From the NCBI GenBank assembly GCA_951406725.2, contig OX597826.1, positions 83,638,001-83,702,000 on the forward strand: a DNA stretch of 64,000 nucleotides, given 5' to 3'. The stretch is from Octopus vulgaris. Taxonomy: Eukaryota. A program made the position numbers and the translations under genes. Shown here in pieces: positions 6,590-42,760 of the stretch. How positions within the stretch are numbered: the first letter of the stretch is position 1; every line of letters begins with the position of its first letter. The notes beneath the pieces were generated by a model. That model ran no database searches. It was given only the letters and a program-made list of their open reading frames with translations, and was not told the origin of the DNA.

Positions 6590-6812
6590 TTAAATTGTTT
6601 CAGCTTTAAAGCTGCATTCACGCTAGGGCATCATTATATATATCCTTGAAATATGAGACTAGAAACAGCCAACAACTGATGAAGGGTTCTTTATGTTTGT
6701 TTTGTTTTCCATTTGTGTCTTTTGTTGTTTGAAAGAATAGTTTATGTTCAATGTACTCGTGCATCGTACTTTTTTGCTGTACATGTTTTGTGATATCCTG
6801 TGCCCATATATG
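6590..6812 (+). mobile_element. Short (TA)n-embedded repeat with degenerate permuted-hammerhead motif
   Basis: CCTTGAAA..ACAACTGATGAAGGG, a T-rich stretch, then CCTGTGCCCATATA. Same layout as the 35225, 36335 and 38920 copies. Confidence 0.6.
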
Positions 6813-6819
6813 ATATATA

Positions 6820-6884
<65 letters not shown>

Positions 6885-15512: not shown

Positions 15513-15593
15513 TACAGTTCTATATTTAAGAGATGAAGAATTATGAACATTATTTACATTTGATGGATATTTGTCCTCATCTTGTTTGTTGTT

Positions 15594-15639
15594 AACACAA
15601 CGTTTTGGCTGATATACCTTCCAGCCTTCATCAGGTATC
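15594..15639 (-). ncRNA. Minimal type I hammerhead motif (G12>A)
   Basis: GAUAC CUGAUGA A GGCUG-loop-CAGCC AAAAC GUU GUGUU. Confidence 0.7.
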
Positions 15640-16608
15640 TTGGGGAAATTTCGAACCTGGGTTCTCATTCCTAAGGTATTTTTGGATGTTATTATTATTA
15701 TTATTATTCAGATGAATGCCTGGAATCGAACTTGGAATCTTGTTAGTAGCCCACACTCTTAACCACTACGCCATATGCCCGTGGGCAATTATGGAGTGAA
15801 TTTTAGGGCTTATAAATTTAATATCTTCCTATCCTTCCTTAATACCGGTTTCCCATATGCTGTTCATATCTGCACTTGGTCTGCTTAGGAGGTTGTTGTG
15901 TCTTAGCATATGTGCTGCTTCTTTTAGTTTTCCTATTTTCCAGTGGTGTTCTCTGTCTACTATTTTAACTTCATCCCACAGAGGGAGGTGGTCTCCATTT
16001 TTCCATACAACTACATAAGCAACAACTACCCCAAAAGCATACTCTCCTCTCCAATTATGAAGAAAAGAGAGGATGAAACCAATAAACTGTCCACAGTCTG
16101 TCTACCCTATGTGAAAGGCCTCTCTGAAAAGATACAAAAGACATGTGGCCCATATGACATCAGGACAGTATTCAAGAGTCATACAACACTTTGCAAATAT
16201 CTTCTTTGAGTAAAACAACCAACAGAAGAGAATATGATCAAGAACTGTGTGTACTCCATCCTATGCAGTTGTGGTAGGTTATACAAAGGCAAAACATACT
16301 GTCTCCCTCAAAATAAGGGTAGAGGAACATTGCAAAGCTGTGACATGGGGAGATATTGATAAATCGGGTAAAGCTGATCATGTGTGGAAAAATGGAGATC
16401 ACCTCCCCCTGTAGGATGAAGTTAAAATAGTAGACAGAGAACACCACTGGAAAATAGGAAAACTAAAAGAAGCAGCACATATGCTCGGATACAACAACCT
16501 CCTAAGCAGACCAAGTGCAGATATGAACAGCAGATGGGAACCGGTATTAAGGAAGGATAGGAAGATATTAGATTTATAAGCCCTAAAATTCACTCCATAA
16601 TTGCCCAC

Positions 16609-34975: not shown

Positions 34976-35224
34976 CTCGAACACACATGAACACACACAT
35001 ACAGTCTTTTCACAGATGAGGATACAACATTATCCTTCAGTGGCTCACGTGGCATTATTCTCAGCTAATAAAAGATTACATATACTCTACTTTATGTATA
35101 TGCATGTATATATATATATATAGAGAGAGAGAGATAAAACTTACTTGGAAATGGATGCATGGCATTTGATCATATAATATTTTGTTACCACTTTAACCGT
35201 CCACAAAAAATCCCGAATTTTATT

Positions 35225-35392
35225 TAATTTGCTTTGCAAAAAGGCCTGTTTTAATGAAGTGACGTCTTGTCCCTACCTTTGAAATGTGGAGTAGATAAAA
35301 CAGGGAACAACTGATGAAGGGAATGTTCTTTATGTTGCCTGTCACGTTTCTCATTCTGTTGACATTTCTTTGATGTCCTGTACCATATATGC
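35225..35392 (+). mobile_element. Short repeat carrying a permuted hammerhead motif
   Basis: Same layout as 36480-36700. Ends CCTGTACCATATA. Confidence 0.75.
35261..35321 (+). ncRNA. Non-circularly permuted hammerhead ribozyme candidate
   Basis: GACGU C|UUGUCCCU A CCUUU GAAA UGUG ..AGGGAACAA CUGAUGA AGGG. Confidence 0.7.
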
Positions 35393-35504
35393 ATGTATAT
35401 ATATATATACGTATATATGTAAGCATATACACGTATGTATGTATGTATGTATATAAGCATATATTTATATATTATTTATATTATATATATATGTATACAT
35501 ATAT

Positions 35505-36191: not shown

Positions 36192-36245
36192 AACAAAAAC
36201 TGTCTGACGAACGGGAACGTGAAACTCCGAGTAACAGGCTTTGTT
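36192..36245 (+). ncRNA. Intact minimal type I hammerhead ribozyme
   Basis: AACAAA-AA-CUGU CUGACGA ACG-GGAA-CGU GAAA CUC-C-GAG UA| ACAG-GC-UUUGUU. Perfect core, predicted cleavage after 36233. Confidence 0.88.
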
Positions 36246-36334
36246 GAATTTCTGCTGCTTTTAAATAAAGCATATTACTCTACCTCTTTTCTCCACCTTG
36301 TTTCACATTTATGTATTTACTCCGGTATATATAT

Positions 36335-36696
36335 AAAAAAGCCCTCATTGTTGGTTTCCTTGTCCTGTTTTTATGCTTTATATGTTCTGTATTTTTTATT
36401 TTTTGTATTGCTTTTACGTCCTGTTCTTGTCACTTTCTTTCCTTTTTTTTACTCCTCTGCAAAAAGAATTTTATTTAATTCATTTTGCAGGAAGGACTGC
36501 TTCGGCCGGATCATGTTCTGCCCTTACCTTCGAAACACGCATTGAGTTGAACCAGGGGCAGCTGATGAAGGGGAATATTCCTTGTATTGTTTGTCTTGTA
36601 CTCTGTTTTTTTCGTTGTTAAAAAAAGTCCGTTTCCTTGTTTGTTTTTATGTTTTCTTTTCTCGTTGTGTTCTACGTTTATTTGTGGTGTCCTGTA

Positions 36697-36700
<4 letters not shown>
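36335..36700 (+). mobile_element. (TA)n-embedded repeat (putative PLE pLTR / retrozyme-like unit) with permuted hammerhead
   Basis: T-rich flanks around a GC-rich core. Ends CCTGTACTCA(TA)n. Confidence 0.7.
36512..36573 (+). ncRNA. Non-circularly permuted hammerhead ribozyme candidate (best copy)
   Basis: CAUGU U|CUGCCCUU A CCUUC GAAA CACG ..AGGGGCAG CUGAUGA AGGGG, with an 8-bp stem I. Confidence 0.75.
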
Positions 36701-36740
<40 letters not shown>

Positions 36741-36835
36741 TGTATATATACATATAGATGTAGGTATGTACATATATGTATGTATGCATATATTTTATTT
36801 GTTAAATTGTTATTATATATATATATATATATATA

Positions 36836-37570
36836 ATGGTTGTATACTGTCAATCTAACAAGAACGTGACAGTAGGGGGTACACCACCATTATATAGCCC
36901 TAGGAGGTATCGAACGCCTCCTGACAGCTTCAACACATTTTATCCTGTGTCCTTATATACACATACGAAGGGGAGACAAACACCCCCAACTGCCGGAACT
37001 GCATCTAGGAAACTCTTCAATAGACACAATTTAAAAATTAGTTTTAGTTCAACTACCAATTTTAAAAACATAATCAATCATAACATACAAAAAACACAAG
37101 AAGAAAACAGCTGTTCATGCAGGAATAAAGAATTGTGCCCGCTAAATGGAGCTTGCATGTCCAAGACCATCATATATGAAGCTACCGTAAACTCTATAAC
37201 CACTAAAGACACCGTTTCGACGAAGAAATACGTGGGCCTGACAGAGGGTAATTTCAAGGCCAGGTTCAATAACCACACTTTGAGCTTTAGGCACTGGAAC
37301 AAAAGAAAAGCGACACAATTATCCAATCATATTTGGTCTTTAAGAGATAAAGGTGTCGATTATAACATACAATGGAAGATTTTGGCCAGATGTAAGCCCT
37401 ACACTAACGGCAGCGGAAGGTGCGGTTTATGCGACATGGAGAGATGGCTTATCTGGAAAAGCAGCTTAGACCCTACCACATGTCTAAATACAAGGACAGA
37501 GCTTTTCGGATCATACCCACATGTGACTAAATTTCTGTTACGTTTTTGGTCCCCTAAAGAAAACGGATAG
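36836..37570 (+). CDS. GIY-YIG endonuclease ORF of a Penelope-like element (244 aa, no RT)
   Basis: CSCRNKELCPLNGAC, IIYEA..YVGLTE..FKARFNNH, WKIL, CGLC..E, LNTRTE. This Cys pattern resembles Hydra-clade PLEs (from recall, not tested). Confidence 0.8.
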   Translation: MVVYCQSNKNVTVGGTPPLYSPRRYRTPPDSFNTFYPVSLYTHTKGRQTPPTAGTASRKLFNRHNLKISFSSTTNFKNIINHNIQKTQEENSCSCRNKELCPLNGACMSKTIIYEATVNSITTKDTVSTKKYVGLTEGNFKARFNNHTLSFRHWNKRKATQLSNHIWSLRDKGVDYNIQWKILARCKPYTNGSGRCGLCDMERWLIWKSSLDPTTCLNTRTELFGSYPHVTKFLLRFWSPKENG

Positions 37571-37761: not shown

Positions 37762-37834
37762 TAGCCAGATAACCGAAGAGATGGTGTTGTGGATTTCCAC
37801 TTCGGCATCTGAAACTCAGAGTTTTATCTTGACT
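37762..37834 (+). ncRNA. Type I hammerhead motif (U4>C) in the PLE 3' pLTR
   Basis: AGAUAA CCGAAGA GAUG..CAUC U GAAA CUC-A-GAG UU UUAUCU. Confidence 0.7.
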
Positions 37835-39971: not shown

Positions 39972-40488
39972 ATTCCAGTACATACAGACCGAACCATCAA
40001 GGCCAATAAACCAGATATTGTTGTGAAAGACCAAAACAATAAAGTTTGCTTATTGATCAACATGAGCATCCCCTGTGATCATAATATCTCAGCGAAAGAG
40101 TTTGACAAGCTCAGAAAATATAAAGACCTACTCATTGAAATTGAGAAAATGTGGCATCTCAAAGCGGTTACAATACCAGTGATCGTAGGAGCACTAGGAA
40201 TGATCAAGAAGGGAACCGAAAATTATATGAGAATGATCCCTGGCTTACCATCCCTGCAAGAAGTGCAAAAGATTGTCTTAACTGGTACATCACACGTATT
40301 GAGAAGAGCATTGTCGATGTGAGAACTGTTGCTGCTCATGTATTTTAATTTAACTTTAAAAAAAATGAACGAACTACTGAGTTTGGTTTAATGGCCTACC
40401 AATGTATACTATGAGTTTCTTTGCCCTAGGAGTCAGGAATACACTCAGCAAGAAATGGAAGCAAATTTGAAAGAAGAAGAAAAAAAAA

Positions 40489-40490
<2 letters not shown>
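39972..40490 (+). mobile_element. R4/Dong-like RLE LINE, 5'-truncated copy 1
   Basis: TDRTIKANKPDIV..KYKDL..MW..PVIVGALG..LRRALSM*, flanked by (AAT)n. Confidence 0.9.
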
Positions 40491-40564
<74 letters not shown>

Positions 40565-40583
40565 TAATAATAATAATAATAAT

Positions 40584-41417
40584 ACTGAAACCGAAGGGTT
40601 TATCATAGCAGCTCAAGATCAATGCCTACCAACAAGAAACTACCAGGCCAACATATTAAAGAACGGCAGTAGCCCAACATGTCGTGTATGCTGACAACAA
40701 AATGAAACCATTGACCATGTTGTCTCCAAATGCAGTCTTCTAGTGCCTACAGAGTACCTCAGTAGACATGATAGAGCTGCACAATATATTCACTGGGTAA
40801 TTTGCAAAAACCTGGATTTGCCCCATGAAAAAAACTGTGCTTGAAAATGACCACATCTCACTCCTCTGGAACTTCATCATTCAAACTGACAGGAAGATAG
40901 ATGCAAATAGGCCAGACATCATATTGAAAGACTTCAGACAAAGAACATGCCTCCTCATTGATATGACTGTCCTAATCGATATAAACGTATCTGTCAAGAC
41001 CTACCAAAAACTGAGCAAATATAAAGATCTTGAAATAGAAATCAGCAAAATGTGGAAGCTGAAGACTAAAACAATACCTGTTGTCATAGGTGCCCTGGGA
41101 ATGATAGCGAAAGGGACTGATTGCTACCTAACTCAGATACCAGGAAACCCCAAAATGGCAGAAATTCAAAAGATAGTGCTCATGGGAACTGCTCATATCC
41201 TACGCAAAATACTCTCTATGTAATCCCAAGGTTTAAAACAAACTTTTTTTTTTATTTATTTATTTATTTTTTTTTTTAATTTATGTATTAGACATTCACT
41301 AGTACAACACAAAAAAAAAACCCCCAAATATATGGCACAGAACTTCCAACCTGTTGTCTCTTGAGGTCTCTGGGTGAGACTTGGAGCCAACTTGTACAGA
41401 CATAAAGCAAAAGTCAA
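40584..41417 (+). mobile_element. R4/Dong-like RLE LINE, 5'-truncated copy 2
   Basis: ETEGFIIAAQDQ, CRVC..H..C zinc knuckle, RHD, NRPDII..KYKDL. Flanked by (AAT)n. Confidence 0.92.
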
Positions 41418-41656
<239 letters not shown>

Positions 41657-42760
41657 ACTACCAAGCAAGCAAAGTGTAACTACCAAGCAAGCAAAGCGTA
41701 ACTACCAAGCAAGCAAAGCGAATAAGAGCCGGAAACCACTGCTACCAAGCAAGCAAAGCGAATAAGAGCCGGAAACCACTGCTACCAAGCAAGCAAAGCG
41801 AATCAAGCAGACTGCAAAAAAGAACGGGCAGAATCAAATTGAGAGGCGGTGGAGCCAGAAGCCCCTGCATGGACAATATATTCTACGAAGCCAAAATGCT
41901 GATGTAGACCAAGCAACAACCCATGAGTGGCTGAAGAGCTCTGGATTGAAAGCAGAGACTGAAGGTTTCATAATGGCAGCACAAGATCAAAGCTTGTTTA
42001 CCAGAAATTACCAGGCTAACATTCTCCGAAACGGTACTGACCCTAAATGCAGATTCTGTGACACATTTGACGAAACAATAGACCATCTCGTTTCGGGATG
42101 TCCTGTGCTGACACCAAACGAATACAAAAATCGCCACGATAGGGTAGGACAGTATATACATTGGAAGATATGTAAACACTACAAATCCGACACTCCTGCT
42201 AACTGGTATGAACACCATCCTCAGCCAGTTGTTGAAGGAAAAGATGTCACCATCCTCTGGGATTTTCCAGTCAACACTGACAGAACGATCAAGGCTAATC
42301 GACCAGACATAATTGTTAAAGACAGGGAAGAAAATACCTGCAGACTAATAGAAGTAAGCGTCCCCACTGATAAAAATGTATCTGTCAAGGAATTTGACAA
42401 ACTTAGTAAAGGACCTGGAAATCGAAATACAGAGGATGTGGAATCTTAAAACAAAAACTGTTCCTGTTATTGTAGGTGCCCTAGGTATGATAAAAAAGGA
42501 ATGTCAGAAACACCTAGACAATATCCCTGGAAAACCATGTCTCAAGGAAATCCAAAAGATTGTGCTAACAAGTACTGCCCACATCCTTAGAAAAACCCTA
42601 TCAATGTAAATGTTTGTGTTTGCATTACATGGAGATATTTCTCTACTTCCCCTCCCCAAGCTTTCAGCTATATTTCAACAACTCTTAACCTTCACTTGCC
42701 CTAGGGCGCTGGGTGTGCCCCGGCAGGTGATTGCATCAAACATGCAGATTAAAAGTAAAT
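41657..42760 (+). mobile_element. R4/Dong-like RLE LINE, 5'-truncated copy 3
   Basis: WSQKPLHGQY..KAETEGFIMAAQDQ..CRFC..HLVSGC..RHD..RPDII, with a frameshift near 42410. Flanked by (AAT)n. Confidence 0.93.

Follow-up and report, generated by a model that had tools for sequence, protein, structure and literature searches.

Copies of the repeat in the window

The window, a stretch of 64 kb of Octopus vulgaris DNA (contig C13, 83638001-83702000), contains between 35197 and 35321 a sequence predicted to adopt a hammerhead-like fold of about 125 nt, with U16.1 at 35265, C17 at 35266, GAAA at 35281-35284 (G12 at 35281) and CUGAUGA at 35311-35317 (C3 at 35311). An earlier note had placed a rearranged hammerhead at 35261-35321; the letters that it quoted are present exactly as given, and they make up the 3' half only, the fold beginning about 65 nt further 5'. 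The surrounding repeat copy, which has an internal deletion near 35350 and an AT-rich 3' end, and the other features of the window are listed in Table 1.

Table 1. Features of the fold, of its host copy and of neighboring elements (window coordinates).
Feature	Position	Strand	Remarks
5'-truncated copy, non-coding repeat subfamily A	35180-35490	+	blastn to full units 88% and 81%
Inverted piece of unit start/tail at 5' junction	35132-35179	-	94% over 48 nt; Penelope-like hallmark
P0 5' strand	35197-35200	+	partner 35318-35321 right after A9; 3/4 pairs
Pup hairpin	35201-35239	+	ends directly 5' of position 10.1; bottom 3 pairs broken
Stem II 5' strand (10.1-10.5)	35240-35244	+	partner 35276-35280; A10.1-U11.1 here, G-C in the family
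Stem IIIb strand	35246-35253	+	partner 35296-35303; 8/8 pairs
Block S: stem III 3' strand, U16.1, C17, stem I 3' strand	35261-35273	+	predicted cut 3' of C17
Block G: stem II 3' strand, G12-A13-A14-A15.1, stem III 5' strand	35276-35288	+	
Stem I 5' strand, CUGAUGA core, P0 3' strand	35304-35321	+	core 35311-35317
Second copy, young subfamily B (element ~36336-36835)	36452-36573	+	GUU triplet, predicted cut after 36517; 3/39 pairs broken, nearly intact
Third copy, Naiad-type subfamily C1	38988-39092	-	G12 lost (dead)
Fourth copy, subfamily G-like	6639-6879	+	5' end ~7 nt past predicted cut
Separate ~140-bp high-copy element	36198-36335	+	ordinary minimal type I hammerhead (core 36204-36225); assembled contigs stop at 36196 and 36335
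Penelope-like (PLE) 3' piece	36806-37570, 37773-37815	+	GIY-YIG-like frame (PF01541, E=0.014, below cut-off), then type I hammerhead with CCGAAGA core and long stem II
Type I PLE hammerhead	~15590-15640	-	one extra A after A9; G12 lost
Three non-LTR retrotransposon C-terminus fragments	39972-42449	+	beside (AAT)n runs; putative CCHC and restriction-like endonuclease

A descriptor of the fold matched the window only at 35311 and found nothing in 60 dinucleotide-matched random windows, and an Rfam scan of the 64 kb, hammerhead models included, gave no match at gathering score. The 35261 copy has kept all core bases, diverges by 9.6% from its own subfamily, has a U.G at 15.2-16.2 and shows six broken pairs (one in P0, three in Pup and one each in stems III and I), while 33 of the 38 copies of the subfamily have fewer. 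It is an old insertion and a true family member, and we would rather expect it to be weakly active or inactive. Its nested minimum-energy fold is unremarkable and differs from the proposed one (z +0.73, as compared to -1.73 for an intact subfamily B copy), nested folding recovering only some helices and not being decisive for a double pseudoknot. For the bases after A9 (35318-35333; 36569-36583) there is an alternative local pairing, a hairpin or palindrome (GGAAUAUUCC for subfamily B), which would compete with P0 and is seen in subfamilies A-H.

Searches of the genome (2.8 Gb, 227 contigs) showed that the 35261 stretch is a dispersed repeat with 2,332 first-look candidates, the best 40 of which match at 87-92% (self excluded), and that the 36512 copy belongs to a younger subfamily with 2,015 candidates at 96-99%. 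The pattern leading from block G to block C, GAAAC-N14-34-CTGANGAAGG, had 7,910 genome matches as opposed to 268 for the reversed control; a second pattern group gave 457 and 0, and a pattern allowing other bases after A9 gave 4,363 and 2,009, respectively. The subfamily B stretch was covered in four assembled contig sets, a kind of data that speaks neither for nor against RNA ends or expression.

Core, stems and covariation

Hammerhead numbering and the cleavage mechanism are established knowledge. A set of 170 copies was divided into 21 subfamilies of 1-38 copies each, and pairing was scored on the subfamily majority sequences. The CUGAnGA and GAAA boxes are intact in the 35261 copy and in 20 of the 21 majorities, C1 showing CpG decay at G12. 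A15.1-U16.1 and an NUH triplet occur in 21/21 (GUC 10, GUA 6, GUU 3, AUA 1, AUC 1), which was partly imposed by seed selection except in subfamilies A, B, C1 and D-H. Stem I was paired in 105/105 cells and stem III in 101/105 (each 0/5000 permutations), counts that lean high because pairing of both stems, together with H not being G, had served to choose many of the seeds; moreover, permutation counts overstate independence, as the subfamilies are related. Both this pairing and an alignment of natural copies back the earlier proposal of a rearranged, non-circular S-G-C hammerhead with a predicted cut after 35266, and do so with far more than two copies. Its stem III (ACGU:AUGU) was correct, with one U.G and a broken fifth pair, and its stem I stands for 7 bp with one C.A mismatch. 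The AG at the end of that stem belongs to IIIb (35246-35253:35296-35303), and therefore the linker between stems I and II amounts to 2 nt instead of a single A. Differences between the stems of the 35261 and 36512 copies, which had been taken as independent support, are in part decay of the former and not covariation.

Stem II played no role in the selection of copies. Eleven classes can be told apart for the strand before GAAA (CCUUC, UGCUC, GUGUC, CAGCC, CGGCC, UGCCC, AGGCC, UGGGC, AGCGC and two from old copies), and a strand located 19-27 nt 5' of U16.1 pairs with it in 103/105 cells (0/5000 permutations), with 3-4 Watson-Crick types at pairs 2-5. The fold thus has three covarying stems and an R10.1-Y11.1 pair, which is G-C in 19/21 and A-U in the 35261 copy. 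When the search interval was re-optimised, a score of 10/10 was reached by 8 of the 11 classes against the upstream region of the same class and by none of the 110 foreign combinations. At the level of single copies, the upstream partner was stronger than the partner after A9 in 109 of 117, with 3 ties. An automatic MAFFT alignment, in which 18 subfamilies were each represented by one natural copy, gave the same outcome as the majority sequences: the upstream stem II, scored on 16 rows because two C rows were misaligned, was paired in 92.5% as compared to 65.5% after shuffling (0/500), and the best slid control reached 58.9%. By contrast, the stem II proposed before (CCUU:AGGG) was paired in 56.9% of cells versus 51.9% after shuffling (76/500), and the true partner in the 35261 copy is 35240-35244.

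These counts bear on the reading as an ordinary type-SGC hammerhead (Eckert et al., 2023; PMC10085705), in which block C would be intact and the bases after CUGAnGA would form stem II with the strand before GAAA. Pairing with post-A9 bases after 0, 1 or 2 skipped bases was found in 38/84, 55/84 and 49/84 cells, respectively, and the register proposed before gave 44/84 (653/5000, not above permutation). The one-bulge register does beat permutation (2/5000), mostly through G.U, since in subfamilies A-H a GGG(G) following one bulged base pairs with (C)UUC by two G-C and two G.U pairs; also, Naiad_Lpol and Naiad_Ppla (see below) resemble the type-SGC form by eye. However, in subfamilies C, G, J, K, M and Q the strand before GAAA changes and the upstream strand follows, whereas the bases after A9 do not, and we consider the type-SGC reading very improbable. 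Also very improbable, in our view, is a switch in which the upstream-paired fold would be a conserved OFF state and cleavage would need refolding to a stem II of 1-3 bp with a G just after A9. In its favor, most octopus subfamilies could form a first G-C pair at most 2 nt from A9 (17/21 when two bases are skipped), a stem II of 1 bp suffices in natural hammerheads (PMC3088659) and the majority of inserted copies came from uncut RNA. Against it, the first pair of the upstream helix is G10.1-C11.1 in 19/21, the start expected of a catalytic stem II, and ostracod and box-jellyfish Naiads, inspected by eye, have no G within 2 nt after A9.

In the split fold, the bases after A9 pair with a far-upstream strand to form P0, with 92/105 cells paired (0/5000; 6 of 21 boundaries placed by hand) and U-A, A-U, C-G and G-C all found beside A9. 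The base of Pup, which ends at the base preceding G10.1, is paired in 76/85 cells (17 subfamilies placed automatically; 0/5000). As the post-A9 bases pair far upstream, two extra helices lie between A9 and G10.1; A9 is joined to 10.1 neither directly nor via 1-2 nt. Beyond its internal loop, stem III continues as IIIb (cognate -7.5, non-cognate -3.6 kcal/mol). By eye, a helix between stems I and II of the kind described by Eckert et al. could be drawn as well, but the strand concerned, which precedes stem I, has a better partner upstream, in IIIb. The 61-nt construct proposed for in vitro cleavage (35261-35321) does not contain the true partner strand of stem II, and restoring only the C before GAAA in the 35261 copy converts the A10.1-U11.1 pair into a mismatch; therefore, a negative cleavage result would not refute the fold.

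Host element and relation to Naiad retroelements

The 5' ends of the repeat copies vary, and the AT-rich 3' end is constant. The copies further show tandem units of ~830 bp, inverted 5' pieces, a short tail and (TA)n targets, and the same tandem, inverted and tail features have been described for PLEs (PMC8557442). The consensi of Naiad_Obim and Naiad_Ovul (PMC8557442, supplement S5) have subfamily C2 as their 3' end, and at locus L281 a decayed reverse transcriptase (RT) piece lies upstream of a C2 motif. When this piece was used as a query, 12 of 30 Naiad-type RT loci, all of them decayed pieces, carried the motif in sense 0.7-1.4 kb downstream, a count that includes the query's own locus and one 33-nt edge match. 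In units of subfamilies A, B and H no ORF was found, nor was an autonomous parent found for subfamilies A-H. Because subfamily A is without an ORF, its putative Naiad origin is deduced from the fold and the mode of insertion that it has in common with Naiads.

The GIY-YIG frames at 36806-37570 and in locus L221 were considered as a parent and proved to be separate insertions, and none of 30 C-terminal GIY-YIG loci had the motif in sense behind the frame. The ORFs of octopus Naiads appear to have died long ago, yet nearly identical tandem arrays of subfamily H with a period of 832-839 bp (L121-L123) point to recent activity. A young PLE family (L228, L233 and L244, on contigs C16 and C9), in which 16 of 148 GIY-YIG matches lie in open frames of 781 aa, seems by eye to end 3' in a type I hammerhead with a U3-A8 core variant.

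Naiads have been reported to be without canonical hammerheads, eight being flagged 'HHR_half_core' (Craig et al., 2021; PMC8557442). For 26 of the 54 consensi, with names assigned by file order, we inspected the 3'-terminal ~600 nt by eye. The full six-helix split fold was seen in five (Obim, Ovul, squid Esco, ostracod 4_Dst and box-jellyfish 2_Movir); in 4_Dst it comprises a GGGG:CCCC P0, a Pup of 8 bp, a GACGCC:GGCGUC stem II and a IIIb of 5 bp. Three others (Lpol, Ppla and, irregularly, 1_Dst) have the S-G-C order with stem II after A9, four (Smim, Parc, 3_Nbra and Hpol) show type I with a long loop II, twelve show nothing in this portion and two are ambiguous. Naiad_Ppla, Naiad_Lpol and Naiad-1_Dst (PMC8557442, File S5), with inserts of ~100-300 nt between blocks S and G, are candidates for plain type-SGC hammerheads in arthropod genomes.

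5' ends of copies

In a first set of 47 loci, chosen regardless of upstream sequence and reduced to 43 after 4 with low scores had been dropped, 14 copies start at -3 to +12 of the predicted cut, and the four preceding bins hold 2, 1, 3 and 0. A second set, consisting of the first 100 of 3,609 copies selected solely on block C and the flank 3' of it, has 28 of its 5' ends at 0 to +22 (1.22/nt), 11 at -75 to -1 (0.15/nt), 3 at +23 to +44 (0.14/nt) and 58 further upstream. The density of 5' ends therefore jumps eightfold exactly at the predicted cut, with boundaries beside (TA)n uncertain by a few bases. For copies not used before, the pre-set interval of -3 to +12 contained 16 of 38 (p=3e-5 against uniform). 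This step is consistent with cleaved RNA having lost a few bases when it was reverse-transcribed and may be regarded as an indirect sign of cleavage in vivo. Most inserts seem to stem from uncut RNA, as 58/100 reach past -75, and cleavage is therefore predicted to be slow or partial.

Alternatively, the structure might serve as a signal for an element protein or make the RT pause, its hammerhead core being a non-catalytic vestige, and the cluster of 5' ends would then reflect RT stalling. In a Poseidon element, the hammerhead could be dispensed with in vitro and cleaved only with protein, no reads ending at the site (PMC11167929), and the interval of 0 to +22 spans the doubly paired loop. Stalling is possible, but one would expect it where the structure has its 3' edge, and there, as at Pup, no pile-up occurs, the onset at position 0 being sharp; furthermore, core bases are all kept in 21 subfamilies despite turnover of the stems. 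We therefore hold a non-catalytic signal to be most unlikely.

Proposed fold and comparison with known hammerheads

We propose, with a probability of roughly 0.8, that the repeat encodes a predicted hammerhead ribozyme with a topology outside the six described permutations, located in the 3' region of Naiad-type PLEs and of their non-coding relatives. From 5' to 3' its order would be the P0 strand, Pup, the stem II 5' strand (with G10.1), the IIIb strand and an internal loop, then the stem III strand with U16.1 and H17, the stem I strand, 1-4 nt and the stem II strand continuing through GAAA into the stem III strand, and finally an internal loop, the IIIb strand, the stem I strand with CUGAnGA and the P0 strand. 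Stems III and IIIb would together form a single long hairpin, and pairing of its loop with the sequences on either side would create two pseudoknots (stems I and II). P0 and Pup would interrupt the backbone between A9 and G10.1, presumably as a four-way junction with P0 stacked on Pup, and a U-turn may exist at the internal loop of stem III. Cleavage would take place 3' of H17 by the usual hammerhead chemistry, slowly or incompletely, and could cut tandem or read-through transcripts into units; such cut RNAs would sometimes be reverse-transcribed and inserted.

Some published hammerhead variants have extra core hairpins, and a precedent for a split core is possible. In the openly accessible literature covered, no report was found of the split-core fold, of helices at A9/G10.1 or of type-SGC hammerheads in animal genomes. 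The passages covered of PMC13282606 do not mention ribozymes. Eckert et al. (2023; PMC10085705) assumed block C to be uninterruptible and found no SGC RNA in genomes of known organisms. HRIMA-1 and its variants resemble the octopus fold in the S-G-C order, full core, short I-II link, at least two pseudoknots and the same predicted cut step. In contrast to them, the octopus fold occurs in animal genomes in thousands of copies, has block C split at A9/G10.1 and possesses P0, Pup and IIIb in place of the I-II interaction helix, so that stems I and II are not bridged at their free sides. Since its block C is interrupted, we do not file it as type SGC despite the shared order.

Minimal type I hammerheads of PLEs (Cervera and de la Pena, 2014; PMC4209133) likewise reside in a PLE 3' repeat, form many divergent families per genome, have G10.1-C11.1 and carry an insert between 9 and 10.1. 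They differ in circular order, a one-base insert, almost no stem III and action as dimers, whereas the octopus fold has a full stem III and two helices at 9/10.1. The single extra base is a conserved trait of PLE hammerheads (PMC4209133) and indicates some tolerance at this place, not tolerance of helices; extra bases reported at A9/G10.1 are single (PMC4209133) or one or two (PMC10085705), and core insertions in PMC3088659 are of 1-2 nt only. With Naiads (PMC8557442) the octopus units share the 3' end, in the case of C2, as well as (TA)n targets and tandem, inverted and tail structures, and subfamily A differs from them by having no ORF. Animal non-LTR retrozymes (bioRxiv 10.64898/2026.07.22.740005) are likewise tandemly arranged, do not code for protein and contain a hammerhead, and in both cases mobilisation is probably due to PLEs, but the retrozyme hammerheads are of type I, and the octopus units measure ~830 bp; octopus is not included in the accessible part of that study.

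A core split between A9 and G10.1 appears to be an order of parts not described before, and the hammerhead variant would be new. It is likely that an active split-core hammerhead, non-circular, doubly pseudoknotted and with a four-way junction at A9/G10.1, is hidden in many Naiads of molluscs, arthropods and cnidarians and cuts the element RNA in vivo, and that other Naiads carry plain type-SGC forms, so that non-circular hammerheads would be common in animal genomes. If true, this adds a topology that the published six-permutation scheme bars by assumption, and search patterns derived from that scheme would therefore not look for a split core. Non-circular ribozymes would move from viroid-like metatranscriptome RNAs into animal genomes, with about ten thousand copies, and the claim that Naiads lack hammerheads would have to be revised, explaining some of the 'half-core' flags. 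The cluster of 5' ends would then be a genomic sign of PLE ribozyme cutting in vivo, a thing that RNA-seq did not show for the Poseidon element.
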